From contig JBIJDH010000038.1 in the NCBI GenBank assembly GCA_044344255.1, forward strand, positions 1 to 53,385: a stretch of DNA of 53,385 nt, given 5' to 3'. Positions 5,361 to 21,996 of the stretch are shown one piece after another. The translations under genes and the position numbers were made by a program. Positions within the stretch are counted from its first letter, which is position 1. Every line of letters starts with the position of its first letter. The stretch comes from Myxococcota bacterium. GTDB lineage: Bacteria; Myxococcota_A; UBA796; UBA2385. The notes beneath the pieces are model-generated. The model had not been told where the DNA came from. It was given only the letters and a program-made list of their open reading frames with translations, and did not search any database.

Positions 5361-5500
5361 AGCTCGACCACCTGCTCTTCCTGTGGCGCCTCGCGCTCCT
5401 CAGCATCGTCATCGCGGCCTTCCGCTGCCAGGGCGGGACTCCGCCGAGCGTCGTCGAGGTGCCCGCCCGCCCGGTCGCCTCCACCGTGCAGGCCCGCTGA
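5357..5500 (+). CDS. Small membrane or signal-peptide protein (47 aa, MKLDHLLFLWRLALLSIVIAAFRCQGG...)
   Basis: Not in the ORF track. GTGA overlap with the upstream stop, GGAGG RBS, and its TGA overlaps the next ATG. Hydrophobic stretch followed by a Cys. Confidence 0.6.
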   Translation: MKLDHLLFLWRLALLSIVIAAFRCQGGTPPSVVEVPARPVASTVQAR

Positions 5501-5685
5501 TGTCCGCTGTCGCCGAGTCCTTCCTGGAGCGCATCCTCCCCATCGTGCGGACGCGGCTCCCCCGAGGCATTGACGCCGACTACCTCGACGCCTTCGTCGA
5601 TCGCAACCGGCCGATGTTGGTCACGGTCATCGACCAGAACCTGGGGCCCATCCTCGCGCGGGTCCAGCCGGCCAACAACCCCGGC
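5500..5685 (+). pseudogene. Truncated duplicate of the 5' end (tag module) of the DarB-like gene
   Basis: MSAVAESFLERILPIVRTRLPRGIDADYLDAFVDRNRPMLVTVIDQNLGPILARVQPANNPG, after which homology stops abruptly. Confidence 0.75.
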
Positions 5686-7147
5686 ACGTTGACAACTCTC
5701 ACGCGGACGGCGGAGCAGGTTTCTTTCGCCTCCGCTCAGACCGCGACGTCCTGCTCAGGCGAGACGAAGGCGACGAGAGCACCAATCCCCACGAACGCCC
5801 CGACAACCCTCCCCTACCGAGGCAAAGACCCCGCGCGCACCCAGACCCGAAGCCCGGGCCATCCCCAAGGTAGACCCCGTCAAGGATGCGCTTCTGGTTG
5901 GTGCCTTTGCCCTGGCCATCCGGGCCACCGCAGCCGGGATGCGAGGAGATGCACCAGGAGCCGCCGGTTCTCCTACCACAGCTTCTTCAAACTTCAGGTC
6001 AGGCCTTACTTGGTAGCTCATGGCGGGGCTCGGGTTGAGCCGTTGAATTCTGGGTCCGGAGATGCGACGAGTGGGAGCCCACTCCTTTCGATACGGCCCT
6101 GGACAGGGCTGGAATCGATAGCGCAAATTTTCAGGAAACTCAAAATGGTGGCCCACAAAACAGAATCGCCCTTTGCTCACCCAATATCAACCGAAATAGT
6201 CGAAAGAAGTGGATGCGAGCGAGTCACGACACTCAGAATCAAACAACCACTAGTCCGTATGGGTCGAGAGCAGTTCCCCCGAAACAGCATCCAGGTCGTA
6301 AGCAACGTCCCCACCGGCCTCGTCGTCCAGTCGCAGCACCGCCGCAGAGTCCGAAATATCGCTGGGCACCCCCCGTCCCGATCCTTCGCAGTCCGAGTAG
6401 CAATTCCGATATCCGAAAGCAGGCATAATCAGGTACCACGCGCCACCGTTGGTGGGCTCGATACCCACCACGGTGAGGGCTTCCGGACTGTCTACACTCC
6501 ATTCTGTGACCACCACAGACTCCTGGTCAGCCCATTCTCCTTCGCTACCCACCCCGCCCCGGAATTGCCAATAAACCCCCGGCTTGGAACTGGATGCAAA
6601 CGCGCCTTCCGCAGTCAATTCATCAACCGAACCGTCTGGCCCCGATCCATAGGCAAAAAACCACAAGAACCCCGCATCCGCCGCCCACTCGCCTCGCGTT
6701 GCTTGCAGCGCCACCGATGCGGCATGCGCAAACGTCGTCCCACCAGGGTCGTCACCGTCGGCGAAGTTCATCCCATCGTTTGACCCATCACCACTGCTGC
6801 GACCATCCTTCCCATCGGACGAACCACTACAACCGATAACAAAGACGGTGAGAAGTAATAATGAGAACTGCACTTTCACTTCCTCGGGAGGCTCATCGTA
6901 TCGCAGCGTTGCTGCTCAAGCAAGATCATGGTCGACGATCTTTGCGAGCTTCAGGGGGTGCGACGTGAACGCAGCGGCCATGTTCCTCGAGCGCATCCTC
7001 CCCATCGTCCGGAACCGGCTCCCCCGCGGCATCGACGCCGACTACCTCGACGCCTTCGTCGATCGCAACCGGCCGATGTTGGTCATGGTCATCGACCAGA
7101 ACCTCGGTCCCATCCTCGCGCGGGTCCAGCCGGCCAACAACCCCGGC
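5521..7147 (+). repeat. 165-bp direct repeat (5521-5685 and 6983-7147) flanking a lower-GC cassette
   Basis: Manual alignment gives 9 mismatches in 165 bp. Of 8 altered codons, 6 are synonymous. Confidence 0.95.
6250..6879 (-). CDS. Putative lipoprotein (cargo/moron gene)
   Basis: MKVQFSLLLLTVFVIG-C signal with a lipobox-like Cys and a Ser/Gly/Asp linker. GAGGAA RBS. Opposite strand and lower GC than its neighbours. Confidence 0.75.
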   Translation of the reverse strand: MKVQFSLLLLTVFVIGCSGSSDGKDGRSSGDGSNDGMNFADGDDPGGTTFAHAASVALQATRGEWAADAGFLWFFAYGSGPDGSVDELTAEGAFASSSKPGVYWQFRGGVGSEGEWADQESVVVTEWSVDSPEALTVVGIEPTNGGAWYLIMPAFGYRNCYSDCEGSGRGVPSDISDSAAVLRLDDEAGGDVAYDLDAVSGELLSTHTD

Positions 7148-10100
7148 GACCAGGGCGAGCTCGCCGAGCTGTGGACCCCGGGCAAGCGCACCGCCGCGAA
7201 CCTCGCCGCCATGCGCCTCCTCGCCACCAAGGCCCCGGGAGACTTGGTCGAGGCCGACCGTTCCGTGCTCCGCGGCTACTCGGGCTGGGGCGGGCTCTCG
7301 ATCCGTTCGGCGGCCCCGCAGTTCCCGGCGGGCATCCCCGTGCCCGAAGAGCGCGGGCTCATCCACGAGTACTACACCCCCACCCGGGTCACTCGGGAGG
7401 TCGCCCGGCTCGTGGGGCCGCTGGTGCCGGAGCTCGCGGGCGACGAGGGCGTGGTCCACGCGCTGGAGCCCTCCGCCGGCATCGGCCGCTTTCTCCATGC
7501 TTTCCAGGGCCCGGCCTTCGCCGACCTGCGTTGGCACTCCTGCGAGTGGTCGGAGCTGTCCGGCCGGCTCCTCGCCGCCCTCTTCCCGAGCCTCGACCTG
7601 CACGTCGGCCCCTTCGAGCGGTGGGTCCGCGAGCAGGGCCCCGCCTGGACCGGGCGGATCAACATCCTCATCTCGAACCCGCCCTACGGCGCCCGCGGGG
7701 CCAGCCTCGCCGAAGATCCCGACCGGGCCTACCGCGAGAAGATGGCCTACCACTACTTCCTGCGACGGGGCCTCGATCTGCTCGCCCCGAACGGCCTCGG
7801 CGTCTTCCTCGTCCCCGCCGGCTTCCTCACCGGCAAGACCGCCGCCTTCCGCACGCTGCGCGAGAAGGTGCTCAAGCGCCACCACCTCGCGAGCGCCTAT
7901 CGGCTCCCCTCGATGCGCCCGAATGGCCGCGAGGCCATCTTCCCCGGCGCCCTGCTCGTGACGGACCTGCTCTTCTTCCGGGCCCGCGGCGGCGAGCTCG
8001 ACGCCGTAGACCGGGCCGACCAGGGCATCCTCGAGGGCCGCTACTTCGAGGAGAACCCGCGGCACATCCTCGGCCGCGAGGTCGGCAAGGACGGCGGCGA
8101 CGACGACCAGTCGGCGAAGCCCCGCTACAGCTACCAGGTCGAGGGCGAGTTCACGCGGCTCCCCGACCTCGTCGAGCGCCCGCTCTGTTCAGACTGCAAC
8201 ATCATCGCCTTCCCCACCGGCCGGTCGGCGGGCGCGGGCCGAATCGGAGTGACCCGACAGGCCGACGGGGAGGTCTCTCACCTGCCCCGCGACCTCGCCT
8301 CCGCCGTCACCCTCGGGCTGCGCGTGGACCGCTACCTCGCGCTCGTGGCGGCCGACGCAGCCGACGAGCCGCCGATGCTCTGGCCGGAGCTCCACGAGGC
8401 CCTCGCCGCATGGAAGGGAAGCTACGGGAACCCGCACGCGCACATCGATCTCGTCAAGCTCGCCCGTGGCGGCACCACCGGGGCCGAACGCTTCCTCTCG
8501 GCGTTCGACCGGGCGGGCGGGCTCATCGAGGGCCTGCGGCACCCGCCGGCCGCCATCGAGCCTCGTTTCACCGGTCAGGTAGACGATGTGGTCGCCATCG
8601 CCGAGCACCTGTATCGGAGCGCCCGGTCCCTCACCCTCCCCGCCCTCTTCGAATACCACCGCTCCCTCGGCGGCCAGCTCTCCGAGGATGCCGTGCGGGA
8701 GCGCGCGCTCGCGGGGGGCTGGTTCCTCGACGGCGACGACTGGCGGGATCTCGTACCCGCCGAGGTCTACCTCACCGGCTCCCTCTGGCCCCGCTATGAC
8801 CGCGCGAAGGCCCACGGCGCCGAGGCCCAGGCGAAGACCCTGCTCGCCGCCATCGCACCCGCCCTCTTTGATGACATCGACGGCGTCTCTGCGCGTCAGG
8901 GTTGGCTCCCGCTCGACCTCGTGAGCGCCTGGATCAACGACACCTGGAGCCGAGCCTCTGGCTACGACAGCGTCGAGCTGGTGCGCCAGAAGGGCCTCGT
9001 GGCGCCGAGCGGCTGGGACTACGAAGATCTGTCCAAGAAGGAGCGCGACCTCCACCCCGAGGTCCTGCTGCTCGTCGGCTGGATGAACCACGACAAGACC
9101 CTGTTCAGCCCGCCCAAGAAGTTCGACGACGAGTCCGAGAAGGACATCGACAAGGCCCGCATGAAGAAGGCCGCCGAGTGGGACGCCAGCTTCAAGGGAT
9201 GGGTGGGCGCCACCGCCGAGCGACGGGCCCGCATCGAGGGCGCCTACAACCGCCAGTTCCGCGGCTTCGTGCAGCCGTCCTATGCGGCAGAGCACCTGCC
9301 CATCGCCCGCTGGCGAAAGGACGGCCCGCGGCTGCACCCCCATCAGATCGCCGGCGCCCGACGGGTGCTCGCCAACCGCGGCGGGCTGCTCGCCTTCGAC
9401 GTGGGCGTCGGCAAGACCTACACCGGCGTCGGGGTGATCGCGCGGGCCCGGCAGGAGGGCTGGTGCAAGCGGCCGGTGGTGGTGGTCCCGAACTCCATCG
9501 TCTGGAAGTGGGAGGCCGACTTCAAGCGGGTCCTCCCCGACTACCGCGTCGCGGTGATCGGCTCGAAACGAAAGACCATCAGCCGGGGCGAGCGCAAGGG
9601 CCTCCAGACCTCCGACACCGACACCCCCCAGGAGCGGGCCGAGAAGTGGACCCGGTTCCAGGCCGGCGAGTACGACGTGGTGCTGCTCACCTACACGGCC
9701 CTCGGCCGCACCCGCATGAACGAGAAGGCGGTCCGCGGGTATGCCGACCAGACGGAGGCCATTCAACGGGAGGTCACCCTCCGCCGCCGGAACGCCCAGA
9801 AGCGGAAGAAGCTCTCCGAGCGCGACCAGGCGATCCTCAAGGAGGGCGTGGCCGCCTGGGTGGCCCAGCAGATGGAGATCTCCGAGGGCTGGGACTACGA
9901 CCCCGGCGTGGCCTGGGATGACATCGGCGTCGATCTGCTCATGGTGGACGAAGCCCAGAACTTCAAGAACCTGTACCTCCCGGAAGACCGGGAGGGCGGC
10001 GTCCCCCGCTTCATGGGCAACCCAGGAGACGGCTCGAAGCGAGCCTGGCAGCTTGACTTCCGCTGCGCCGCGGTGCGCCGGAAGACCGGGGGGGCCGGCG

Positions 10101-12094
10101 TCGTGCTGCTGTCAGCCACCCCGGCGAAGAACAGCCCCCTCGAGTTCTACAACCTCATCCAGTACGTCGATCCCGGCGCCTGGACGCGGATGGGGATCCG
10201 CGACCCTGAACAGTTCATCGACCGCTACCTGAAGATCGAGATCAAGCCCGTGGTCACGCCCGCGATGGAGGTCGAGGAGCGCGGCGCCGTCGTCGGCTTC
10301 CAGAACCTCCACGAGCTGCGCGACGTGATCCTCCGCTACGGCGAATTCAAGACCGCCGAAGAGGTGGGCCTGCGCCTGCCGGAGCCCCGCGTCGAGATGG
10401 TCGAGGTGGACATGGACGTCGGCCAGGACGCCAAGTACGACGACTACGTCCGCCAGATCGAGGCCGCCATCAAGTCGGAGGACCCGGCCGACCGGGCCCA
10501 GATCCTCGGCCTCCTCGCCCGAATGGCGCTCGTCGCCATCCACGCCGAGCTCGACGAGGGCTACTCCTGGAAGACCGCCGACGAGGTCGGGAGCTCGTCC
10601 TCCCCCAAGTTCGCCGCGCTGGCCGAGCGGGTGCTCGCCAACCGCACCTGCGGTCACCTCGTCTTCGTGGACAATATCGCGGCCCACCGCTGGGTCCGCG
10701 ATGTGCTCATCAAGGGCGGCATCGTCGCCGACCGCATCGCCGTGCTCAACGCCGAGGTCGCCCCGAACGCCGCCGACCGCCAGCGTATCGCCCGCGAGTT
10801 CAACGGCGACCCCGAGACGGAGACGCTGCCCAAGTACGACGTGGTCATCGCCAACGCCATCGCCTACGAGGGCATCGACCTCCAAACGCGCACCTGCGCG
10901 ATTCACCACCTCGATCTTCCCTGGGAGCCCGCCACTCTCCAGCAGCGGAACGGCCGCGGCGTCCGACAGGGCAACACCCTCTCCGCCATCGCCATCTACT
11001 ACTACTTCTCGCGCCGCTCCCAGGATGGGCTTCGGTTCAACCTCATTCAGGGCAAACGCGGCTGGATGACGCAGCTCCTGAAGTCCCAGGACCGGGACAC
11101 GAACAACCCCGGCGCCCAGATGGACATGGGGCCGGAGGAGATCCTCCTCCTCATCAGCCGCAATCCAGAACAGACGCGGGCTCGACTGGAGGCGGTGCGC
11201 GCCCAGCGCGAGGCGGAGGCGAAGAAGAAGATCGCCGCCGAGGCGAGCAAGCTCCTCCGGGCGATCAACGCCCGCTTCCGAAACGCCGAGCGAAGCCGCG
11301 ACGCAGTCGAGGCCGCCCGGCTCCGCGGCGAAGGCGAGGAGCGCCTCAAGCACCTCGCCCGAATGAGCCCCGAAGCCTGGCCCTGGGCGGCCCAGGCCGT
11401 CGTGGTGCGGGACACGCCGGTCCTCGTGCCCGACGGGGGCGGACCCCTCTACGAAGGGCTGCGCATCGGCGTTCCCAGCACCTGGAATGAGGGGCGAGTG
11501 GACCACGGCGAGTTCGGTCGGGTGAGCCGCGAGGGCGACATCGGCTTCCGCGCCGCCGGCGAGGCCACCTGGCGCAAGCTCCGCTCGGACGCCGCCCCCC
11601 TCCAAGGCCTCCTCCCCGCGCACTACGGCGTGGACTGGCCCGCCGACGAGCACGCCTTCACGCTGCGCACCGTCCGCGACCGCCTCGCCCGGAACCTCCG
11701 CTACAACGGCGACTGGCCCGCCCTCGGCTGGCACCTTGCCCCCGACACCTGGACGGAGCGCCTCTGGGGCGAGCTCGGCCAGGAGGTCATCGAGGCCATG
11801 TCGCGCGCCTCCTACTACGAAGCCCGCGCGCAGAAGGTCCCCGTCGTCGCGCCCGCCGGCCTCCAAGTCGCCTATGCCGCCGTCATTCACGGCACCGCGG
11901 GCATCACGCCCTACCCGCCGACCGACGCCGGCTGGCGCGCCTTCCTCGAGGCGGCCCGCGTCTCGACCCTGAAGTTCGGCGAGCTCCAGGAGGCGGCCCG
12001 CTACTGGTGGAGCCGGTCGGTGCCCCGCAACCTCCTCTCCGCGGATGGCGGTGAGGGCGAAGAGGCCGAGGGAATGGCCGAGGCGGCCAAGTGA
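6965..12094 (+). CDS. DarB-like polyvalent protein: N6-adenine DNA methyltransferase fused to an SNF2-family helicase
   Basis: ANLAAMRLL...YSGWGGL, EYYTP, LEPSAGIGRF (motif I) and NPPY (motif IV). Helicase motifs DVGVGKT, VDEAQNFKN, SATPAKNSPLE, QRNGRGVRQGN. Start reassigned to GTG 6965 after AGGGGG. Confidence 0.9.
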   Translation: MNAAAMFLERILPIVRNRLPRGIDADYLDAFVDRNRPMLVMVIDQNLGPILARVQPANNPGDQGELAELWTPGKRTAANLAAMRLLATKAPGDLVEADRSVLRGYSGWGGLSIRSAAPQFPAGIPVPEERGLIHEYYTPTRVTREVARLVGPLVPELAGDEGVVHALEPSAGIGRFLHAFQGPAFADLRWHSCEWSELSGRLLAALFPSLDLHVGPFERWVREQGPAWTGRINILISNPPYGARGASLAEDPDRAYREKMAYHYFLRRGLDLLAPNGLGVFLVPAGFLTGKTAAFRTLREKVLKRHHLASAYRLPSMRPNGREAIFPGALLVTDLLFFRARGGELDAVDRADQGILEGRYFEENPRHILGREVGKDGGDDDQSAKPRYSYQVEGEFTRLPDLVERPLCSDCNIIAFPTGRSAGAGRIGVTRQADGEVSHLPRDLASAVTLGLRVDRYLALVAADAADEPPMLWPELHEALAAWKGSYGNPHAHIDLVKLARGGTTGAERFLSAFDRAGGLIEGLRHPPAAIEPRFTGQVDDVVAIAEHLYRSARSLTLPALFEYHRSLGGQLSEDAVRERALAGGWFLDGDDWRDLVPAEVYLTGSLWPRYDRAKAHGAEAQAKTLLAAIAPALFDDIDGVSARQGWLPLDLVSAWINDTWSRASGYDSVELVRQKGLVAPSGWDYEDLSKKERDLHPEVLLLVGWMNHDKTLFSPPKKFDDESEKDIDKARMKKAAEWDASFKGWVGATAERRARIEGAYNRQFRGFVQPSYAAEHLPIARWRKDGPRLHPHQIAGARRVLANRGGLLAFDVGVGKTYTGVGVIARARQEGWCKRPVVVVPNSIVWKWEADFKRVLPDYRVAVIGSKRKTISRGERKGLQTSDTDTPQERAEKWTRFQAGEYDVVLLTYTALGRTRMNEKAVRGYADQTEAIQREVTLRRRNAQKRKKLSERDQAILKEGVAAWVAQQMEISEGWDYDPGVAWDDIGVDLLMVDEAQNFKNLYLPEDREGGVPRFMGNPGDGSKRAWQLDFRCAAVRRKTGGAGVVLLSATPAKNSPLEFYNLIQYVDPGAWTRMGIRDPEQFIDRYLKIEIKPVVTPAMEVEERGAVVGFQNLHELRDVILRYGEFKTAEEVGLRLPEPRVEMVEVDMDVGQDAKYDDYVRQIEAAIKSEDPADRAQILGLLARMALVAIHAELDEGYSWKTADEVGSSSSPKFAALAERVLANRTCGHLVFVDNIAAHRWVRDVLIKGGIVADRIAVLNAEVAPNAADRQRIAREFNGDPETETLPKYDVVIANAIAYEGIDLQTRTCAIHHLDLPWEPATLQQRNGRGVRQGNTLSAIAIYYYFSRRSQDGLRFNLIQGKRGWMTQLLKSQDRDTNNPGAQMDMGPEEILLLISRNPEQTRARLEAVRAQREAEAKKKIAAEASKLLRAINARFRNAERSRDAVEAARLRGEGEERLKHLARMSPEAWPWAAQAVVVRDTPVLVPDGGGPLYEGLRIGVPSTWNEGRVDHGEFGRVSREGDIGFRAAGEATWRKLRSDAAPLQGLLPAHYGVDWPADEHAFTLRTVRDRLARNLRYNGDWPALGWHLAPDTWTERLWGELGQEVIEAMSRASYYEARAQKVPVVAPAGLQVAYAAVIHGTAGITPYPPTDAGWRAFLEAARVSTLKFGELQEAARYWWSRSVPRNLLSADGGEGEEAEGMAEAAK

Positions 12095-12756
12095 ACCCCT
12101 ACCTCGCCCCCGACCGCGTCGAGCACACGCTCGAGGCCCTCGTCCGGCCGGCGCTCGGCGTCCGCTACGTCTGGAGCGGCGGCGGCGCCAACGCCCGCTA
12201 CCCTGAGGGTGGCCTCGGCCACGTCCTCCAGCCCCGGCGGCGCGGCTGGGACTGCTCCGGCTTCGTGCTCGGGCTCCTCGCCCTGCTCGGCACGGTCCCC
12301 TGGGAGTGGAAGACGCCGCGCACCTCCGCGGGGCTGCGGAAGCTCTGCGCGCCGGTCGCCTGGGGCCAACAGCGGCCGGGGGACCTCGCCTTCTACGAGG
12401 GCCACGTCGTCGTCATCGCCACCGCTCCCGATGGGAAGGGCGACAGCGTCGTCGTCGAAGCCGGAGGCGGTCGGTCCACCACCAATGGGGACGACCCCGG
12501 CGCGGTCATCCGCATCCGCGGCGGCATCCGGCAAGGGCGAGGCGGCTTCCTCGGCCTCGGGCGGATGCACCCCATCGGCGTCTCTGAGCTGCAGCAGGCC
12601 ACCGTCGAGGCCGTCCACGCCCTCGTGAACGGAGCCGATCCCGGTTCGGTCTCCACCGCCGTCCTGGAGCAGCTCGAGGGTCGCTACCGCGGCATTCCCG
12701 CCGTCGCGGCCTTTCTGGGCCAGCCCACCGTCTCGGGGGGCCGCCATGCCCGCTGA
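12091..12756 (+). CDS. NlpC/P60-family cell-wall peptidase
   Basis: G.RYVWSGG, WDCSGFV (catalytic Cys), PGDLAFYEGHV (His). GTGA coupling. Confidence 0.85.
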   Translation: MNPYLAPDRVEHTLEALVRPALGVRYVWSGGGANARYPEGGLGHVLQPRRRGWDCSGFVLGLLALLGTVPWEWKTPRTSAGLRKLCAPVAWGQQRPGDLAFYEGHVVVIATAPDGKGDSVVVEAGGGRSTTNGDDPGAVIRIRGGIRQGRGGFLGLGRMHPIGVSELQQATVEAVHALVNGADPGSVSTAVLEQLEGRYRGIPAVAAFLGQPTVSGGRHAR

Positions 12757-13500: not shown

Positions 13501-13523
13501 CCCCCCAACCCAAGGACGTACCC

Positions 13524-14831
13524 ATGGAAACCGAAGAGATGCTCCCGCCCATCGTGGAAGACCCGAGCCACGGCCCCACTCGCCGTCGCCTGCTGTGCCT
13601 GAAGTCCGCCTTCGTGAACTGGCTGTTCGCCGACATCAAGGTGGCCACCCTGCGCCTCGGCCAGCACAGCGTCACCATCGGCGACCGCATCACCTACAAC
13701 GACGACCAGACCCCGACCGCCGCCGGCCAGCTCGGCATGAACACGACGAACGGCCGGCCCCGGGCCTACATCGGCGGCCAATCCCGCGAGCTGCCGGGGG
13801 ACCACGAGGTGCTGCGCCCCGATGGAGAGGTCGCGAACGCGGCTGACCAGGACTGGGGCGGCTTCCGGCTGACCAACCTCGGCCTCGCCAGCCTCGCCGC
13901 CGACGCGCCCACCTGGGGCCAGGTCATCGACCTCGTCACCACCCGCGTCGACGCGCTCGAGTGGTCGGATGGCGTGGACGCGGCCACCACCACGGCGATC
14001 GCGGCCGACGCGACCCTCGCCGGCGAGACGCTCACCGCGAACGCCAACGGCGCCTTCGCCACCGTGGATGGTGTCGCCCCCGCGATGGGAAACTTCTATC
14101 TGCTGAAAGACGAGGCCAACGCGAAGGACGGCGTCTGGACGCTCACGACGCTCGGCGACGGCAGCACCGCATGGGTGCTCACCCGCCGCACCGACTTCGC
14201 CGTCGGCCAGGGCGTCGCCGGCCGTCTCCTCCCCGTGAAGCGCGGCACCGTCTACGGCGGCACCGACTGGCGGGTCTCTTCGGCCGCGGGCTCCGATGTG
14301 GTCGGCACCCACACCATCACCTTCAGCGTCCGCACGGTGACCAACGACCACGGGAGCCTCGTCGGCCTCGGGGACGATGACCACAGCATCTACGCCCTCC
14401 TCGCCGGTCGCTCCGGCGGGCAGACCTTCGTGGGCGGCTCCGGCGCCGGGCAGAGCCTCACGCTGAGCTCGACCAGCCACGCCACCAAGGGCCTCATCGA
14501 CCTCTTGGACGCCGTCCAGGTGGGCGGGAACATCGGCCTCAACGGCGACTTCGACATCAAACCCACCACCAGCGGTCAAGGCCGAGTCGGGACCGTCGGC
14601 AAGAAGTTCGCCCAGGTGAACGCCGTGGTCGTCAACATGGGCGACGCCGTCATGCAGTCCCCCGAGGACCCGAGCGCCCGCTTCGTGTTCATCGAGGCCG
14701 CCCCCGACCACCTCATCGTCGTGAACCCCGTCACTGGCCGGGCTTGGGACGTGCTCTCCGCCGGGGCCTCGCGATCCGCGACCCCCGCCGAGATCCAGCG
14801 CGCGGTTGATGGTCCCGGGGGTGGTGCGTGA
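13524..14831 (+). CDS. Fibre/spike-like receptor-binding protein (435 aa)
   Basis: AAGGA RBS. TVDGV...YLLKDE..AKDGVW...WVLTRRTDF (fibre-type module), HGSLVGLGDDDHSIY motif, Gly/Thr-rich composition. The C-terminus resembles the 13108 protein. Confidence 0.7.
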   Translation: METEEMLPPIVEDPSHGPTRRRLLCLKSAFVNWLFADIKVATLRLGQHSVTIGDRITYNDDQTPTAAGQLGMNTTNGRPRAYIGGQSRELPGDHEVLRPDGEVANAADQDWGGFRLTNLGLASLAADAPTWGQVIDLVTTRVDALEWSDGVDAATTTAIAADATLAGETLTANANGAFATVDGVAPAMGNFYLLKDEANAKDGVWTLTTLGDGSTAWVLTRRTDFAVGQGVAGRLLPVKRGTVYGGTDWRVSSAAGSDVVGTHTITFSVRTVTNDHGSLVGLGDDDHSIYALLAGRSGGQTFVGGSGAGQSLTLSSTSHATKGLIDLLDAVQVGGNIGLNGDFDIKPTTSGQGRVGTVGKKFAQVNAVVVNMGDAVMQSPEDPSARFVFIEAAPDHLIVVNPVTGRAWDVLSAGASRSATPAEIQRAVDGPGGGA

Positions 14832-15388
14832 TCGTCGCCGCGACCATCGGTCACGCCGGCCGGCCCTCCAAGTGGGCCGATCGGGGCGCTGCCTTCGAGG
14901 GGGTGGAGGAGGCGAGCGTCGTCCGCCGCTACCTCGACGCAATGGACCACGAGCTGCGCCGCCTTGGCCACTCGGTGGTCCTACTCGGCGACGGCGAGTA
15001 TGCCGACCAGTGGGCACGGGCCGACGGGTATGGCGCTGGCGTCTACCTCAACGCGCACGTCAACGCCGGGAAGGGCGACCGGGGGCTCGTCTTCTACGAC
15101 CACCGGTCGGTGCGGGGGAAATCCCTCGCCGAGGCCCTCGCCGCGGAGCTGGCCCGCGCGCTGCCGTGGTCCACCGCAGCGCTCCCTTGCCGTCCCGACA
15201 CCAACGGCGTGCCGCGGGACGGCGACTTCAGCGAGGCGTTCTCCTGCATCCGCGGGGTGAAAGCGCCCGCGGTCTGCCTGGAGCCCTACTTCCTCGACGG
15301 GCCGCGACGGGCCGACTTCCTCTTTCGCCTCCCTGATGTCGGGTGCGCCGTCGCCAACGGCATCGCCGGCTGGGCGAAGGCGGCGTGA
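14828..15388 (+). CDS. N-acetylmuramoyl-L-alanine amidase (Amidase_3), putative endolysin
   Basis: Zn-ligand and catalytic pattern IGHAG...E...YLNAHVNAG...AVCLEPYFLD. No signal peptide. Confidence 0.85.
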   Translation: MIVAATIGHAGRPSKWADRGAAFEGVEEASVVRRYLDAMDHELRRLGHSVVLLGDGEYADQWARADGYGAGVYLNAHVNAGKGDRGLVFYDHRSVRGKSLAEALAAELARALPWSTAALPCRPDTNGVPRDGDFSEAFSCIRGVKAPAVCLEPYFLDGPRRADFLFRLPDVGCAVANGIAGWAKAA

Positions 15389-15486
15389 GGATGTTCGCCT
15401 GGAACTCACCCGCGCAAACTCGGTGTCTCCGCCTTCCTCCACTTGCCAGTGCCGGACGACGAGGGCCACCCGTTCACGGGCTGGGA

Positions 15487-15939
15487 TTACCTCGCCAGGA
15501 AGTCGAAGCGGAGACTCGCGTCTGTCACCCGTTCGGGCTGCTCGTTGGTGTAGGCGAAGGCTCGGACCTCGCCCACCCCGGGGTACCGAAAGCGGACGTG
15601 GTCAGCGTAGGTCCTGGCCTGCTCCATCACCTTTTTTCGCGAGTCGGTGCGCTTGGCACGCGCGGTCGAGCCGCTCCGTCCCGTGTCGATGAATTTCACC
15701 TCCACAACGGCCACGTTGCCCGAGCCATCGGTGAAGAGCAGGTCCCCTCGGCCGAGATTGGTCATCCCGCTGACCACCTCCCACTCGTCGTCGACGAGGA
15801 ACGGAAAGGCAGGGAGGAGCTCGCGGCTGCGCCGGATCAGGTCCCTCTTGAGCACGAATTCTTCGTTCTCGTCCCAGTCTTTCCCTTCAAAGAAGGCTCT
15901 GAGGATTCCGTCCCTTCGAATCGCCTCGGCTCGGTCCAT
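15487..15939 (-). CDS. Small PD-(D/E)XK nuclease-like protein
   Basis: EWEV...GRGDLLFTD...VAVVEVK...QARTY, the E-D-ExK-QxxxY pattern. GGAGG upstream. Confidence 0.65.
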   Translation of the reverse strand: MDRAEAIRRDGILRAFFEGKDWDENEEFVLKRDLIRRSRELLPAFPFLVDDEWEVVSGMTNLGRGDLLFTDGSGNVAVVEVKFIDTGRSGSTARAKRTDSRKKVMEQARTYADHVRFRYPGVGEVRAFAYTNEQPERVTDASLRFDFLAR

Positions 15940-16016
15940 GTTCGTGCGGCCTCCGTTGTGAATGGCAAGAACGGAAGACGCAGATGTCCGTGGGCACCGG
16001 ACACCTCGGCGATCCG

Positions 16017-16110
16017 ATGGGCACGGTCCTCGAGGTCTTCGCCGGCTGCGACGGCACCTCCCACGGCCTCCATCGGGCCGGCTGGCACCCCTTCGCCCGT
16101 ATCGGGCGTG
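16017..16110 (+). pseudogene. Remnant of a C5-cytosine DNA methyltransferase N-terminus
   Basis: MGTVLEVFAGCDGTSHGLHRAGW matches C5-MTase motif I (h-E/D-h-F-A-G-x-G-G-x-x-x-G-h-x-x-A-G). No later motifs follow. Confidence 0.5.
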
Positions 16111-16181
16111 CCCCAGTCGCGGTCATGGAGTGCCAATACTCTTCGCTGGATGCGGCAGGCATCCCGATGAACCGCTCGGCG

Positions 16182-16670
16182 CTAAGGGGCGTCTCTCGCC
16201 TCCCCGACCTCGGCCAGGGCCCGCGCGATCAAGGCAGGGTGGAGCCGAAACCCCTCCGCCTCCACGCGCGCCAGGACCGGGCCGAGCGCTTCAATGAGAC
16301 CGCGCTGACGGGCCTCCAGGAGCACACCGAGGGTGCCGCGCACTGGAAGGCCTCTCGCGCGAGCGACGGCTCTACCGGCTCGCTCGTCCATGAGGAGCAG
16401 ATCCGCACTTTCGGCCTCGGCCAACGCGATCGCAGCGGTCTCGCCCGCATCGAGGCCAAGGTCCATCACGGGCGGGCTCGGTTGCAGAGCCACATGCAGC
16501 CAGGGAGCGGCCCGAAGCTCGGCAACCCCGACGGCGTTCGGGCTCCCTTCCACCAGCTCCAACCAGACGACCCGAGGGACCAGCACTCGCTCGAACAAGG
16601 CAGGGAGCAAATCCAGCAGGCCAACCCGCGCCATCACCACCAGCGGCGATGCATCCGCAACCACCAGCAT
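16182..16670 (-). CDS. PIN-domain toxin (DUF3368-like)
   Basis: VVADASPL...VPRVVWLEL...LDAGETAAIALA...LLMDERAGR...GTLGVL. Confidence 0.85.
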   Translation of the reverse strand: MLVVADASPLVVMARVGLLDLLPALFERVLVPRVVWLELVEGSPNAVGVAELRAAPWLHVALQPSPPVMDLGLDAGETAAIALAEAESADLLLMDERAGRAVARARGLPVRGTLGVLLEARQRGLIEALGPVLARVEAEGFRLHPALIARALAEVGEARDAP

Positions 16671-16679
16671 GACCGCGCC

Positions 16680-16961
16680 TCAGGCCCGACCCGCCGTCGC
16701 GCGGATCGACTCGATCTCCTGCTCGAAGTCGTCGGGATCGTAGTCAAGAGTGAGCACCCCGTGGGCGCCGGCCACGCGCAGGAACTCGTCGAGGCTGAGC
16801 CCCAACAGGCGAGCGCCCGCCACCCGAGAGAGGCGCCCCTGCCGAACCTCGTCAAAGACGAGGAGCCGGGAGAGCCGATGCGCGAGCAGCTCGGGTGCCT
16901 CGCCCACGACGGTGGCCGGCACTTCAACCAGGACAGGGATGGTGGATGCGGCTGCGGCCAT
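16680..16961 (-). CDS. UPF0175-like antitoxin partner
   Basis: GRLSRVAGARLLGLSLDEFLRVAGAHGV HTH pattern with an acidic tail, directly upstream of the PIN gene. Confidence 0.8.
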   Translation of the reverse strand: MAAAASTIPVLVEVPATVVGEAPELLAHRLSRLLVFDEVRQGRLSRVAGARLLGLSLDEFLRVAGAHGVLTLDYDPDDFEQEIESIRATAGRA

Positions 16962-17020
16962 GCCCTGGACCTATCGCGACACCACCCGCCGGCCCAGCCT
17001 GCCCTTCCCCGGAACGTTCC

Positions 17021-19852
17021 ATGAACGCCCAGCCCTGCGGCCTCTGCGCCGCCATCGAGCCCCTCCGCGCCCTTCGCGCCGCCCCGAAGGCCGCGGGCAG
17101 CCTCCGCATCGACCGCGAGGCCCTCCGCCGCGAGCTCGGCGGCCGGCCCGAGATCGTGGACGCCGCGCCCGCGAAGGCGAGCGGGCGGCCGTCGGCGAAC
17201 GCCGCGGTCATGTGGCGCTACTTCACCACCTCGGTCTACCAGAGCGGTGATCTACCCGTGCTCGCCACCCGCGAGGCCGCCCAGAACGCCCGCGACGCCA
17301 TCGCCAGCGCCGCACGTCGGCGGCAGATCCGCGCAGGCGAGGGCCGCTTCGAGGTGACCTGGGACGCTGCCAGCCGGAGCCTCTCCTGGGACGACAACGG
17401 CGTAGGTATGGACACCGAGACGATCCTCGGGAAGTTCCTGGTCATCGGCGAGAGCGGCAAGCGCGACGCGGGAGACTCCGAGGAGGCGGCCGGCGGCTTC
17501 GGGGTGGCGAAGGCCGTCATCCTCGGCGCGAGCTCGACCTTCCGCTGGGAGCTTCACAGCCGCGACAACCTCGCCGTCGGCCGAGGCGCCGCCTCCGACG
17601 TGGATGTCTTCGACCATCCGCCTCGTCAGGGCACGCGAATCACCATCCATGACGTGAGCGAGGACTTCGACAGCGCCTGGGAGCCCGCCCGATCCGCCTG
17701 GGTGCCGCTCGAGGATCGCCTCCGCGAGCTGCTCGCCGCCAATGACCTCCCCGGCCTCACCCTCGTCTTCAACGGCCACGAGGTCCGACCGATGTTCAGC
17801 CGCCGCGGCGGCTCGAAGGTCGCCGTCGAGGGCTGGTGGGGGTCCGGAACCGAGGCCAGCGTCAAGGCGTACCGCCGGCCCCCCGGCGACAAGGGCGGCG
17901 CCTACTACATCCGCCTCAACGGGCTCTTCCAGTTCCGGGTGTCGGCGCGGCGAAGCGGTCTCAAGGTCGATGTCGTCATCGACCTCGCCACCACCGTCCG
18001 ACCCGGCCAGTCTGGCTACCCGCTGAACGCCGCCCGGGACGCCCTCCAAGACCGCGCCCGCTGGGCCTTCGACGAGCTGGCCGAGGAGGTGGAGCGCGAG
18101 AACGAGAGCACCGGCCGCTCCGACGAAGAAGAGGTCTACGACCCCGACTCCGACGACCCCCGCGAGCGGGCCGGCGCCGACGAGCTCGCCGCCTTGCAGG
18201 ACGAGGCCTTCCGCGACCCGGCCTTCCAGCGCGCCCTCTCTGAAGCTGCCGGCGGCATCATGGGCTTCTATGCCGAGCGCCTGAAATACGCCGAGAAGCA
18301 GGATTCAGTCTCGAGCCTCGCCCCTCGCGGTACTCGACCCGACCGCCGCGGAGGCGACGACGACGGCGACGGCGAAGAGCGCGGCCCCGTGCTCCCCCCT
18401 GGCTTCAAGGCGGCCGAGGCCGCCGCGCCGATCGAAGCGGACATCGCCGCCCCCTCACAAGTCGCCGCCGGAGCGGCCGGAGCGATCCGCGCCTTCCTCC
18501 AGGGTGCCGATGAGGCCGTGCTGGTCGGCAACCCGAACGGGGAAGACCCCTCGTCGGTCGGTCGCCGTGACCGCGGCATCTTCGGCCCCGCGGTCGAGCA
18601 AGCCCTCGACCAGGTCGCCCGCGGCGAGGCGGACGACGCCGCGGTCGCCACCGTCGAGCAGGCGATCGAGCGCGCCGCCGACACCGCGATGGGCCCCGGC
18701 GGCGGGGGCCTCCTGCAGGTGGCGGCGGTGCCCCGGGTCCTCGCGGCCCTCGACCGGGCCACGGGGCAGGCCAAGGCCCGCAACCCCTTCGGCCGCCACG
18801 CGGGCCTGCGCATCTCGAAGAAGACCTACGACCGAGCTCGCGCCGCACGCTTCAAGCGCAGCTACGCCCGCTGGCTGCCCTTCCTCGTCGCCTGGGACGC
18901 GGCGCTCCGCCTCATCGCCGGCGAGGCCCGCATCCGGCGGCGCTTCAAACCGGGCTTCGTCCTCGACGACACCGTGCTCGGCCTCACCGCCCGCACCGAG
19001 CGGGGCTCCTCCGTCATCTACATCCACCCCGATCGGTTCGCTCAGGCGGTGAAGGCCCACCGCGAGCGACCTCTCGCCATCGCCGCCTACCTCCACGGCA
19101 TCGCCTGCCACGAGCTCACCCACCTCGACTCGGGCCGGCTGCACGCCCGCGGCCATGACGAGCGCTACGTCGCCGCCCGTGAGGACCTCGGCGCTGCGAC
19201 GGGGCATCTCCTCCCCGCCATCGCCATCCTCGTCCAGAAGGTGCTCCAGCTCCCGGAGCCCGAGAACGCTGACCACAAGCGCATCGACCGGCTGGGGCGT
19301 GACCTCGACCGGGCTCGGACCACCATCAAGGAGCAGCGGGCGAAGATCGCCCAGCTCCAGCGCTCCCTCGACCGGGTGCCTGGGGATGAGGGCGACCTCA
19401 ATGGACACCAGACGCCGAACACGCGCCTCCGATGGTCCGATCTGCGCGGCTGGCTCGACGCCTGGCGCCAGATCCAGGCACGCCGGATCTCCGCGACCCG
19501 GCACCGACAGGAGGCCGTTCACCTCGACGCGCTGCCCGACGCCGTCATCGAGGCCGCCGGCGCCGCCGATCGCGACGAGTTCGAGCAGCTCCTCTTCGCG
19601 ACCCGCCCGCCCCCGGGCCTCCGCGCCGATCACCCCTCGGTGCGGCTCCTGAACGCCATCGACCGGGCCCGAGGTGGAGCGGGTCGGGTGAAGAAGGGCC
19701 TCGACGCCGGCCGCCTGCTCGGCGTCGCCATCGCCACCCTGCGCGCTCGTCCGCCCGGCGACCTCGATCCAGCCTACATCGACGGCTTCGTCGCCCGGAA
19801 CCGGCCGAGCCTGCTCACGCTCATCCACGGGGCCTTCGGGGGGGCGCCATGA
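17021..19852 (+). CDS. GHKL (HATPase/MORC-like) ATPase fused to a zincin-like HExxH metallopeptidase and a C-terminal tag module
   Basis: REAAQNARDA, DDNGVGM, GGFGVAK and GTRI Bergerat motifs. ACHELTH...GHDERY peptidase motif, then a coiled coil. Start at ATG 17021 avoids overlap with the antitoxin gene. Confidence 0.85.
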   Translation: MNAQPCGLCAAIEPLRALRAAPKAAGSLRIDREALRRELGGRPEIVDAAPAKASGRPSANAAVMWRYFTTSVYQSGDLPVLATREAAQNARDAIASAARRRQIRAGEGRFEVTWDAASRSLSWDDNGVGMDTETILGKFLVIGESGKRDAGDSEEAAGGFGVAKAVILGASSTFRWELHSRDNLAVGRGAASDVDVFDHPPRQGTRITIHDVSEDFDSAWEPARSAWVPLEDRLRELLAANDLPGLTLVFNGHEVRPMFSRRGGSKVAVEGWWGSGTEASVKAYRRPPGDKGGAYYIRLNGLFQFRVSARRSGLKVDVVIDLATTVRPGQSGYPLNAARDALQDRARWAFDELAEEVERENESTGRSDEEEVYDPDSDDPRERAGADELAALQDEAFRDPAFQRALSEAAGGIMGFYAERLKYAEKQDSVSSLAPRGTRPDRRGGDDDGDGEERGPVLPPGFKAAEAAAPIEADIAAPSQVAAGAAGAIRAFLQGADEAVLVGNPNGEDPSSVGRRDRGIFGPAVEQALDQVARGEADDAAVATVEQAIERAADTAMGPGGGGLLQVAAVPRVLAALDRATGQAKARNPFGRHAGLRISKKTYDRARAARFKRSYARWLPFLVAWDAALRLIAGEARIRRRFKPGFVLDDTVLGLTARTERGSSVIYIHPDRFAQAVKAHRERPLAIAAYLHGIACHELTHLDSGRLHARGHDERYVAAREDLGAATGHLLPAIAILVQKVLQLPEPENADHKRIDRLGRDLDRARTTIKEQRAKIAQLQRSLDRVPGDEGDLNGHQTPNTRLRWSDLRGWLDAWRQIQARRISATRHRQEAVHLDALPDAVIEAAGAADRDEFEQLLFATRPPPGLRADHPSVRLLNAIDRARGGAGRVKKGLDAGRLLGVAIATLRARPPGDLDPAYIDGFVARNRPSLLTLIHGAFGGAP

Positions 19853-21996
19853 ACCCGGAGATCTTGCTGGAGGCCGCCGCCCGGGTCCTTCGCGCCCGAC
19901 CGCCCGAGGGCATCGACGCCGCCTACATCGACGCCTTCCTCGACCGGAACCGCGACCAGCTCGAGGAGATCGTCCGCCTCGCCTTCTCGACTCGGCGCGC
20001 TGAGCCGCCCCTTCGCCGGTTCCAGGAGGAGCACCGCCTCGCCCGCAAGGTGCTTCACTTCACGGTCGCGTTCCTCGCCCAGCCCAGCCGCGACCCCGAG
20101 GAGGCCGCGCTCCTCGCCGAGATGCTCGACGGAATCGCCGACCACGCCGCCTATGAGGACCGCGTCCTCTTCCCCGCCCTTCTCCGCGAGGTGCCCGAGG
20201 CGGAGCCCGCCATCGAGCACGCGATCGGTGAGCACGAGCTCATCGGCGAGCACCTCTTCGCGCTCACCGCGGCCCTCCGCGCAGGGCGCCGCTACGACGG
20301 GCCGGCAATTCCTCTGATCCTCCACCACTTCGAGGAAGAGGAGGAGGCGCTGCTCCCCCTCGCCGGCGCGGTCCGCGAGACGCCGGCGGGCGAGCCGGGC
20401 CGCCTCCAGCTCCTCCAGACCCGAATCGAGGCCCTGCGCCCGCGGCCCACTCTCGACGCTCCGCCGCCGGAGCCCACCCCCGAGGCCGACGCGGTCCTCA
20501 CCCCGAACGGCGGCGCCCGAAGCGGCACGCCCATGCCGCCGGAACGCTGGCAGCGCGGGATGCGCCTCGTCAATGAGGCTGGTCAGCACGGCACCCTCGA
20601 CGAGGTCCGGCGGTGGGTCCTCCGAACCCGGAGCGCGCTCGGTCACCTCGCCGAGGAGACGCAGACCGACGCCCTCTTCGTCCTCGACTCGGGCCGCACC
20701 ATCACCCTCTTCCCGCCCGCCTTCGCAGAGCGGCGGCGGTCGAGCCTCGTCGTCCCAGACGTGCGCCTCGACGGCCGGACCTTCCTCGACCCCAAGGTCG
20801 CCTGGCAACGGGTGAACCAGGCTCGGCTCCAGATCGGCCACGCCGCCGAGAAGGCCGACGCCGCCCGCAAGCCCGACCAGAAGGAGCGTTGGCGGCGAGA
20901 GTCGGCGTCGGCCCTGCGCCTCTTCCAAGAGACCGCCCGCGCCTTCCTCGCCTGGGTGGCGGAGCACCCCGAGGTGGCGATCGAGGGCTTCGACCCAAAG
21001 GAAGCGCGGCGCCTCGTGCTAGAGCTCCAGCCGACCCGGACGCCCGCCGAGGAGTGGGAGCGGGCGGCAATCCAGCGGCTCCCCAAGGACTGGCTGGAGC
21101 GGTGGGTGGTCGGGGACGCTGTGCTGCTGCACCTTCACGACGGTCGGGAGCCTCGACCCGACACCGGCTGGCGCATCACCCAGGTGGAGGGCCACGAGGC
21201 CGAGCTCGAGCGCGGCGGCCAGCGCCACCGGCTGCCCCTCTGGATGCTGAGCCGCGATCCGACCGCGCCCGCCGCACCGGCGACCTACCCGGCGCCCACC
21301 GAAGACCGGTGGCTCGTGGACATCGGCCAGGAGCTGGTCGTCGCCGGGGGCACCGTCAGCCGCGCCGCCGTCGCGAGCGCGGTCAAGCGCTATCTCGCTG
21401 GGAAGGGCGTCCCCGTGCGGACGTCGGTGAACCGGGGCGCCTGGGTCAGCTCCATCACGTTGGAGCCGACCGCCGGCCGCTTCGACGCCGCTGTGCAGGA
21501 GCGCCTGCGCGCGCTCCTCCCCGGCCTGCTCGTCCAGGCGCAGTACGCCTCCTTCGAGCCCGCCCGCCGCGAGGCGCAGGCCTTCGACCCCTACGCCGAC
21601 TACTCCGGCAAGGCCGCCGGGCTGCGCATCCTCGCCGCCGAGGTGCCGGCCTTCGCCGCGATCTTCGCCGCCGCGCTCCGAGGCGAGGGCCAGGCGCTGA
21701 GCCGGCTCGGGGAGTCGCTGTCCGCGGGCGCGGAAGCGACCCCGACCCGAGGCGGCGCCACCCAGACGCAGCGCGCGATGGCGGCCTCGGGCTGCATCGA
21801 CATGGAGTTCGAGCTCCTGGGCGTGGGCCGCGTCCGCGTGGTCTGCGCCCAGGCCGGTCGGCGGGACCTCTGGCACAACCTCTGGGTCGAAAGCGTGCGC
21901 TACGGCTACAACGGCGGGCGCTGGGCGAAGGGGATGCGGCCGCCGCCGGCGGTGCTCGAGGCGGTGCGCGAGCGGGGGGTGGCCGCCTTCGGGTGA
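19849..21996 (+). CDS. Multidomain protein: N-terminal tag module, hemerythrin-like (HHE) domain, several unassigned domains
   Basis: ATGA coupling at 19849. EEH...HAAYEDRVLFPAL...EHELI...HHFEEEEEALLP matches the H/HxxxE hemerythrin pattern. Confidence 0.8.
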   Translation: MNPEILLEAAARVLRARPPEGIDAAYIDAFLDRNRDQLEEIVRLAFSTRRAEPPLRRFQEEHRLARKVLHFTVAFLAQPSRDPEEAALLAEMLDGIADHAAYEDRVLFPALLREVPEAEPAIEHAIGEHELIGEHLFALTAALRAGRRYDGPAIPLILHHFEEEEEALLPLAGAVRETPAGEPGRLQLLQTRIEALRPRPTLDAPPPEPTPEADAVLTPNGGARSGTPMPPERWQRGMRLVNEAGQHGTLDEVRRWVLRTRSALGHLAEETQTDALFVLDSGRTITLFPPAFAERRRSSLVVPDVRLDGRTFLDPKVAWQRVNQARLQIGHAAEKADAARKPDQKERWRRESASALRLFQETARAFLAWVAEHPEVAIEGFDPKEARRLVLELQPTRTPAEEWERAAIQRLPKDWLERWVVGDAVLLHLHDGREPRPDTGWRITQVEGHEAELERGGQRHRLPLWMLSRDPTAPAAPATYPAPTEDRWLVDIGQELVVAGGTVSRAAVASAVKRYLAGKGVPVRTSVNRGAWVSSITLEPTAGRFDAAVQERLRALLPGLLVQAQYASFEPARREAQAFDPYADYSGKAAGLRILAAEVPAFAAIFAAALRGEGQALSRLGESLSAGAEATPTRGGATQTQRAMAASGCIDMEFELLGVGRVRVVCAQAGRRDLWHNLWVESVRYGYNGGRWAKGMRPPPAVLEAVRERGVAAFG

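Follow-up and report, generated by a model that had tools for sequence, protein, structure and literature searches.

Why do three unrelated large proteins encoded close together in a bacterial genome carry the same stretch of about 42 residues at one of their ends? The question arises in the first 53,385 nucleotides of contig JBIJDH010000038.1 (assembly GCA_044344255.1), from a Myxococcota bacterium with an 8.18-Mb genome (G000); this whole stretch is called the window. The contig begins inside a mobile element. A preliminary description, made from the letters alone, proposed that the shared module is a portable helical tag that loads enzymes into a virus particle or joins them into one complex. 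We found that the module behaves as a portable address, and we think it probable that it serves virion loading in some form. We put at roughly 0.45 the more specific reading that the tag docks on the C-terminal helix of c3, a core protein encoded just upstream of one tagged gene, and tethers enzymes to the viral nucleoprotein for co-packaging.

The tagged genes of the window and the products of a duplication beside them are as follows.

5500..5685, plus strand: second DarB gene start, made by duplication, that includes tag copy 5521-5646 and has no independent cargo (165 nucleotides match 6983-7147, with most of the differences in third codon positions)
5709..5952, plus strand: decayed, frameshifted duplicate of the c3 3' end (local alignment)
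6250..6879, minus strand: low-GC inserted gene, lipoprotein-like by eye, inside the duplication (GC 0.54-0.62 against 0.72; no Pfam match)
6965..12094, plus strand: DarB-like adenine methyltransferase (MTase)-SNF2 protein with tag 6983-7108 (Pfam Eco57I, SNF2 and Helicase_C; PHROG DarB-like, E 3.5e-69)
17021..19852, plus strand: GHKL-type ATPase with HExxH peptidase and tag 19715-19840 (weak HATPase_c; HSP90 family, E 5e-7; HELTH at 19109)
19849..21996, plus strand: hemerythrin-domain protein with tag 19864-19989 (Pfam E 1.2e-6; tagged relatives in other elements)

Four copies of the module (5521-5646, 6983-7108, 19715-19840 and 19864-19989) align without gaps, and 12 residues are invariant among them, the same set that had been listed before. 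The domain assignments for the carriers were also borne out (Eco57I/N6 MTase, SNF2 and Helicase_C; hemerythrin; GHKL by a weak HATPase_c match; and the HExxH peptidase by its HELTH motif), with the MTase and SNF2 modules of the DarB carrier both present (motifs NPPY, GVGKT, DEAQ and QRNGR). The copy at 19715-19840 ends 3 residues ahead of the GHKL-peptidase stop codon. The copies at 5521 and 6983 share 40 of 42 residues; the three independent copies are pairwise identical at 16 to 21 of 42. The segment 5111-5685, comprising the end of the gene at 3867 and the start of the DarB gene, was duplicated in tandem: the c3 3' end at 5111-5353 recurs, frameshifted, at 5709-5952, a low-GC gene was inserted inside the duplication, and the true DarB start lies downstream at 6965. 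Hence, the positions and alignment of the preliminary description hold but its count of four does not, since the copy at 5521 is a product of local tandem duplication and the independent copies number three. A hidden Markov model (HMM) of the four copies, run on all six frames of the genome, found no fifth (the next match had E 0.61).

The copy at 5521 is itself what one would expect if the module were a neutral by-product of local duplications, and several database matches are broken frames. In 105 GHKL and 40 DarB proteins, however, the module is conserved although the linker is not, and each class has its own fixed consensus. This conservation profile refutes a neutral origin of the independent copies, and as a general account we find the neutral explanation barely credible.

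Searched against 1.84 billion representative proteins, the four-copy profile matched 128 at E ≤ 0.001, of which 68 carry the module at the N terminus, 45 at the C terminus, 10 are fragments made up of the module and 5 have it internally. By eye, these 5 are mis-called starts or broken frames; genuine internal copies occur in fusions such as P0259, in which GHKL, one tag and hemerythrin are joined so that the window's two genes share a single tag. Hence, the claim that the module is always terminal stands as a strong rule and fails as an absolute one. The matches lie at the termini of diverse enzymes within similar proviruses, and no widespread non-viral domain matched. Over 188 copies of this module of about 45 residues, conservation reaches 96% for P, 97% for F, 98% for one R, 90% for L, 85-87% for other R positions, 84% for G and 82% for Y. 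Hydrophobic residues are spaced as expected for two amphipathic helices that flank a Pro-Gly turn, from which we infer the fold.

The module matched no named domain, as had been noted from the letters. Against Pfam, 62 module members gave a best E of 0.016 with at most 4 members per family; none of 3 members matched PHROGs and none of 2 matched NCBIfam; a PDB sequence search gave a best E of 0.14; and the ESM Atlas returned only short unnamed clusters at 0.76-0.77. Phage records yielded a best E of 3, plasmids no match by tblastn, and a scan of viral contigs with the four-copy alignment 30 pattern matches of which none was confirmed. PF28555 was rejected as the module, as it is annotated on the window's DarB protein and missing from the other tagged proteins. 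A literature search, which left out subscription papers and supplements (including polyvalent-protein domain files that may bear on novelty), found no description of the tag or of the lineage that carries it. Judged by these searches, the module is an uncatalogued family, new to the domain libraries searched.

We found the tag conserved where the sequence before it is not. In GHKL proteins (n = 105), column identity is 0.43-0.50 in the tag and 0.04-0.07 in the preceding linker, and HExxH lies between 83 and 218 residues from the tag. Of 38 DarB proteins measured, 37 have 5-28 residues between the tag and the next motif. A search with residues 40-460 only gave 208 GHKL homologs; among the best 120, 107 are tagged (105 at the C terminus and 2 further inside) and 13 are untagged, several of these being cut short or bearing a visibly diverged tag copy. 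Since the module is conserved behind an unconserved linker of variable length, it behaves as a portable address. The cargo classes and the end that carries the tag are listed here.

DarB-like MTase-SNF2: N-terminal
GHKL-peptidase: C-terminal
C5 MTase: C-terminal, with both tagged and untagged orthologs
DpdA-like: C-terminal
DndC/PAPS-reductase-like: N-terminal
Hemerythrin proteins: N-terminal
Unnamed proteins: further carriers

A further 40 loci held 45 tags, 22 on GHKL C termini, 14 on DarB (5 of them without a start codon within the 8-codon rule, unchecked), 4 on C5 MTases and 5 on others. Genome G415 alone has 29 copies, with arrays behind GHKL that hold six tagged genes in one 20-kb stretch. 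The statement that structural and lysis genes lack the module proved right: no tag occurs in 795 gene calls from 15 core, structural and lysis clusters, a total in which overlapping loci are counted twice.

N-tagged accessory genes tend to begin directly after a C-tagged GHKL gene or in the array behind it (window 19715-19989; L160, L161, L065, L342-L344, L349), as if new cargo arose by copying of a terminal tag onto the neighbouring gene. DpdA-like and DndC/PAPS-reductase-like enzymes occur together as tagged cargo (L342:14039-15175, L344:9815-10918, L342:8844-10292, L065:2867-4060), and the pair may encode a novel DNA modification. In G415, contig C35, an insertion of about 52 kb interrupts the DarB gene (L344:16094-18145, L347:10436-13945); the insertion contains a serine recombinase, a type I restriction-modification system and metal-efflux genes.

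Tags resemble each other within a cargo class rather than within an element. The DarB tags differ as a sequence class from the accessory tags (identity 0.45 within DarB, 0.35 between DarB and GHKL). Such distinct classes, and the P0259 fusion with one tag for two cargos, would suit tag-tag oligomerisation that joins accessory enzymes to the DarB SNF2 translocase. However, all six tags of genome G147 sit on DarB-length frames and no tagged accessory protein was detected there, so in that genome the tag persists in the absence of a second cargo. Identity between DarB and GHKL tags is moreover 0.36 within elements and 0.36 between them (8 elements), which shows no co-adaptation within elements. 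We consider oligomerisation decidedly improbable; of the preliminary proposal, the portable address stands, but not the idea that the tags mainly join different enzymes together. Concerted evolution of tags within one element is rejected by the same comparison.

Many identifiable cargos modify DNA (N6 and C5 MTases, DpdA-like and DndC-like enzymes), and the conserved face of the tag is rich in Arg (85%, 98% and 87%). Both points would suit intracellular targeting only, in which the tag, via c3 or by direct DNA binding, brings modification enzymes to replicating viral DNA before packaging. Against this, the GHKL-peptidase and hemerythrin cargos are no DNA modifiers, DarB sits in the structural operon of these elements, and the excerpted account of PMC5512222 counts proteins of DarB type, and peptidase-bearing ones, among the virion components of other phages. 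We regard intracellular targeting as unlikely to be the whole function.

The module is confined to one group of bacteria. In 401 genomes of the phylum, 37 matched at E ≤ 0.01, and the 31 with E < 1e-4 all belong to the window's class; with a 62-row alignment as query, 75 of 182 genomes of that class matched. Weak matches beyond the class fell in six genomes, and the three inspected (G355, G201 and G168) are partial and outside any element, the inspection leaving out G017, G243 and G264. Titles of 80 related loci name Myxococcota, Deltaproteobacteria or Sandaracinus in 34 cases, the remainder being loosely or inconsistently labelled metagenome-assembled genomes (MAGs), and the carrier elements thus probably have a myxobacterial host. 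L117 and some other loci are titled as Klebsiella, Enterobacterales or Rickettsiales, apparently through loose MAG labelling. The cultured myxobacterium Nannocystis pusilla encodes a GHKL homolog (P0255, WP_224191434.1) with a diverged tag, which was counted as tag-positive.

The carrier has a fixed operon around the tagged DarB gene: c5, a 118-type protein, J2, often c16, a Cys-His-Asp protein (1619), c31, a membrane protein, c3 and DarB. Lysis and cargo genes follow DarB, and three divergent genes lie upstream of the core operon. In the window the core genes are these.

118..1008, plus strand: single jelly-roll protein whose N-terminal arm is first acidic, then rich in Arg; candidate for the major capsid or penton protein (AlphaFold2; conserved in relatives)
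1037..1612, plus strand: J2, compact tandem two-jelly-roll protein; capsid or spike candidate (predicted fold)
1619..2128, plus strand: Cys-His-Asp protein, putative maturation protease (invariant C71, H128 and D142/D143 in 12 homologs)
2144..3274, plus strand: basic core-operon protein, function unassigned (operon position as a conserved cluster of relatives)
3274..3870, plus strand: core-operon membrane protein (relatives' cluster, E 3e-21; hydropathy peak 2.55)
3867..5360, plus strand: c3, basic core protein and last conserved core gene ahead of DarB; candidate DNA-associated scaffold (79 gene calls in cluster)
5274..5357, plus strand: C-terminal amphipathic helix of c3, candidate tag receptor (conservation and predicted complex)

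J2 occurs in 26 of the 401 genomes; 23 of these are tag-positive, 8 genomes have the tag only and 3 have J2 only, counts in which related genomes are not independent. We count this confinement in favour of tethering to c3. The 1619 protein, possibly transglutaminase-like, is encoded in 142 genome and 134 metagenome stretches and has no match in Pfam, PHROGs, NCBIfam or a PDB sequence search; the 2144 protein has no sequence link to the relatives' cluster at the equal operon position.

The C-terminal 112 residues of the 118 protein are predicted to form a beta-sandwich with two short helices (AlphaFold2, mean predicted local distance difference test score (pLDDT) 81.9). Their structural matches include an HHIV-2 chain (6h82_b, Z 7.6), the STIV turret (7.1), the PBCV-1 capsid protein (7.0) and an HCIV-1 chain (5.9); viral matches to HHIV-2, STIV, PBCV-1 and PRD1 proteins range over Z 6.2-7.6, and a non-viral chain is top at 8.2. 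J2 is predicted as two jelly-roll barrels (pLDDT 93.5). Its top Foldseek match in the PDB is the phiCjT23 capsid protein (E 1.8e-5, template modelling (TM) score 0.42; Z 7.8, root-mean-square deviation 5.9, 171 aligned), with XepA and non-viral folds scoring alike; PRD1 P3 and the STIV and FLiP capsid proteins also match. PDB sequence searches with the 118 domain, J2, the Cys-His-Asp protein and the tag gave no significant viral match, and tblastn of J2 and the Cys-His-Asp protein against phages gave none. On these models, the 118 and J2 proteins are candidates for major capsid, penton or spike roles. The groups they were compared with are the single jelly-roll viruses of Halopanivirales type and the double jelly-roll viruses of Varidnaviria (Bamfordvirae type), whose major capsid protein has two vertical jelly rolls.

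No head, portal or terminase family matched among the window proteins (Pfam and PHROG, which may miss remote homologs), no conserved Walker A protein, as an A32/FtsK-HerA packaging ATPase would be, occurs in the core clusters, and the elements have no Pfam match to an HK97-fold shell protein, the folded candidates being jelly rolls. The carrier is not P1-like but an element of tailless jelly-roll type with no detectable portal or terminase.

The carriers are integrated elements at tRNA att sites. Genome G147 has two elements bounded by att repeats beside serine recombinases, one with 42-bp repeats at tRNA-Asn (23.4 kb) and one with 16-bp repeats at tRNA-Val (47.5 kb). Six other flank pairs showed no clear att pair, four MAG contigs no terminal repeats, and contigs of 4 sequencing runs no usable excision joint (depth dips were not counted as evidence). 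The 20 DNA runs containing the sequence are from lake or fresh water, and no RNA run was among those listed. A free relative, G402 from IMG/VR, has 105.7 kb with 51-bp terminal repeats and is rated complete. It has the same core without the tag, keeping 118-type (two tandem paralogs), J2 and Cys-His-Asp genes, and adds PolA, ribonucleotide reductase, Sak4 and primase. Among its 97 of 108 gene calls scanned against Pfam and PHROG, none matched a head, portal, terminase, tail or packaging ATPase family (remote homologs possible). Its DarB-like protein (L152:2769-13475, 3569 residues) keeps the SNF2 motifs and lacks both methylase and tag; going by sequence, the helicase rather than the methylase is the constant part of the operon. 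The core operon apparently marks an undescribed lineage of tailless jelly-roll viruses of 23-105 kb without a detectable packaging ATPase.

Several genomes (G147, G415 and G453) have 6-8 copies of the core operon. In 39 of 66 homologs of the 118-type protein, a hydrophobic-Gly motif (FG, IG, LG or VG) marks the border between the acidic and the basic part, and the motif recurs ahead of conserved segments in other core proteins (relatives of the genes at 2144 and 3274); it is a possible cut site of the Cys-His-Asp protein.

The preliminary description named the products of 118, 1037, 2144 and 3867 as possible partners of the tag, and a candidate receptor was found in the last, c3, with weak predicted support. 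This protein has a net charge of +14 and a low-complexity tail rich in Lys, Pro and Ala. Behind the tail comes a conserved amphipathic helix in which D, L and F are invariant and two A residues nearly so (49 homologs, selected by motif). The c3 family has no match in Pfam, PHROGs or NCBIfam and nothing usable in the ESM Atlas. Among 63 distinct loci with full c3 and a DarB start, HMMs found helix and tag in 57, tag only in 4 and neither in 2; by eye these six have diverged versions of helix or tag rather than a loss. In G402, c3 lacks the helix and the genome lacks the tag. ESMFold2 scored the tag with the c3 helix at 0.44 in three runs, the best of three controls scoring 0.00; contacts agreed by at least 90% and the partner pLDDT was 68. 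Of 157 solved pairs, 116 reach the mark used, as do 2 of 215 mismatched ones. The tag is thus weakly predicted to bind the c3 helix. A diverged sub-lineage has both tag and c3 helix changed (L084, L100, L126, L127, L146, L223, L226, L227).

A virion-loading tag with another receptor, such as the inner face of the jelly-roll shell, the acidic arm of the 118 protein or a membrane protein, would show the same terminal, portable behaviour and would resemble the capsid-targeting sequences of P1 and T4 or the cargo peptides of encapsulins. The conserved basic residues of the tag could meet that acidic arm, and hemerythrins are known encapsulin cargo as described in the excerpted PMC8346489. However, in G402 the tag is missing and c3 lacks the helix although the genes for the 118-type protein, J2 and the Cys-His-Asp protein are all kept, and the c3 helix, the sole pair tested, gave weak support. 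We hold a different receptor to be a minority prospect, about on a par with intracellular targeting.

Under tethering to c3, the tag would be a folded two-helix docking domain (a helix, a PPxG turn and a helix with a conserved Y-x-D-x-F-x-x-R-N/H-R face) that binds the amphipathic C-terminal helix of c3, encoded just upstream of DarB. We infer that c3 coats the viral DNA; lacking a portal or packaging ATPase, the shell would assemble around the c3 nucleoprotein. Any enzyme tagged via a flexible linker would thereby be tethered to the genome, packaged and delivered with the DNA, and would act in cis on the incoming genome against host restriction. Particle formation, DNA binding by c3, and the encapsidation and injection of cargo are all presumed here. 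More broadly, these elements could be a double-stranded DNA virus lineage of 23-105 kb, free of a packaging ATPase, whose shell forms around a c3-coated genome, with a plug and socket (45-residue tag, 20-residue c3 helix) that bolts on any enzyme, including DNA-modification sets, and the SNF2 translocase, present in each structural operon, as core DNA motor; this fuller picture is speculative, and we would sooner bet against it than for it.

Several points weigh against tethering to c3. The sign of particles is indirect, namely the circular complete relative G402. That virus has no tag, so the whole lineage does not need it. The 118 and J2 folds are generic beta-sandwiches for which non-viral chains score equal or higher, and the fit of J2 to double jelly-roll capsids is loose (TM 0.42). 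Methylases and DpdA- and DndC-like enzymes could work in the producer cell without packaging. The tag-helix pair was chosen by the analyst and is the sole complex modelled; scores of 0.60 or less came from 18 of the 157 solved complexes and from both passing mismatches, a band more often wrong than right. Operon linkage alone predicts that helix and tag occur together. Charge complementarity between helix and tag was rejected: rho was -0.41 (n = 42, after dropping L077 with a short tag and L099 with no anchor; a first count of -0.50 with n = 44 included mis-parsed helices), but phylogenetic contrasts gave +0.38 and -0.12 and a linker control was equally strong (+0.39).

The other features of the window's element are given here.

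5357..5500, plus strand: hydrophobic open reading frame of 47 residues (gene call; hydropathy 2.04)
12091..12756, plus strand: NlpC/P60-like cell-wall hydrolase, weak (Pfam E 0.005)
13524..14831, plus strand: Gly/Thr-rich protein, putatively a fibre or a receptor-binding protein (a homolog with 62% identity lies next to another GHKL gene, on G000:C1)
14828..15388, plus strand: Amidase_3 endolysin (Pfam E 4e-9; PHROG endolysin)
15984..16200, plus strand: remnant of a C5 cytosine MTase gene, end approximate (cluster HMM E 2.6e-6; translation)
22108..22740, plus strand: small serine resolvase/invertase (Pfam E 8.8e-46; same position in relatives and G402, beside the cargo block)

The C5 MTase remnant is overlain by a minus-strand PIN (DUF3368)/UPF0175 pair (window 15984-16960). 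A defence island adjoins the element at 23867-46631, with two GmrSD genes, UvrD, a DEAD/MZB helicase, AAA plus HNH, an Eco57I-type MTase and an SNF2 helicase. Elsewhere in G000 there are fragments of a second element and of integration and replication modules: C1 (L157) has the second GHKL gene, C37 (L155) left-arm genes and C9 (L156) a recombinase-primase-VapE block. Resistance-nodulation-division efflux and metal-transport genes (CusCBA-like, cation efflux, P-type ATPase) recur beside the elements (L033, L038, L055, L058, L345-L346), and L035 has a tubulin/FtsZ-like gene near a primase-like gene.

The choice of proteins to be injected with phage DNA is known in few cases, and the signals there are short and unshared. 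Here one small domain is common to at least six unrelated enzyme classes, at either end, with a named candidate receptor. If the tethering is real, jelly-roll-type viruses would have a way of selecting cargo that achieves with modules what polyvalent proteins achieve by fusion, and that might be used to load proteins into particles. The carriers of the tag, found in 75 of the 182 genomes from a single host class, went undetected by PHROGs and Pfam structural profiles, and they are far larger than other viruses reported without a packaging ATPase. What is new is apparently a cargo address of a known general kind on a virus lineage not previously described.

The nearest known address is that of phage P1. 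In the excerpted account of PMC9024508, the first 30 residues of P1 DarB are enough to direct a reporter to the capsid, and Dar proteins share no consensus. The tag resembles the P1 DarB and T4 capsid targeting sequences in marking the end of an anti-restriction MTase-SNF2 protein whose gene lies with structural genes, and in being, in principle, portable; unlike the P1 signal, which is N-terminal, under 30 residues and without consensus, it is one 45-residue domain on many cargos at either end. P1 is also a tailed phage, whereas the carrier here is tailless with no HK97 or portal protein detected. The window's DarB protein matches 113 phage records, and the 25 listed align from residue 66 onward, none of them to the tag, in a comparison that did not extend to P1 DarB itself.

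Encapsulins, with cargo-loading peptides and Family 2 loading domains, likewise use an N- or C-terminal address common to unrelated cargos, hemerythrin included, and the tag may act like their targeting signals or that of P1 DarB while being unrelated in sequence. As PMC8346489 describes them in excerpt, however, encapsulins are HK97-fold cellular compartments with short peptides, whereas here we find jelly-roll proteins, DNA-acting cargo and integrase-bearing mobile elements. Polyvalent proteins, in the excerpted PMC5512222, also combine the MTase-SNF2 dyad with metallopeptidase domains beside virion genes and are predicted to travel with DNA; their activities are fused in one chain, whereas here separate genes bear the same tag.

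ATPase-less double jelly-roll viruses are reported, in the excerpted account of Yutin et al. (PMC5894146), only in the small Odin group and FLiP, with assembly around the genome suggested. The excerpted accounts of the Odin group, FLiP and phiCjT23 (PMC5894146, PMC9719478) describe no cargo tag. Charybdis elements, of 4.6 kb in the excerpted bioRxiv 2025.08.03.668216, differ from these elements. The Odin group, FLiP and phiCjT23 share with the elements the jelly-roll capsid candidates and the lack of a packaging ATPase, but Odin genomes are 7-11 kb and those of FLiP and phiCjT23 single-stranded DNA, whereas the elements here are 23-48 kb when integrated and up to 105.7 kb when free (PMC5894146, PMC9719478). 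At about 190 residues, J2 is also shorter than the 239-residue phiCjT23 protein that is called the smallest (PMC9719478).

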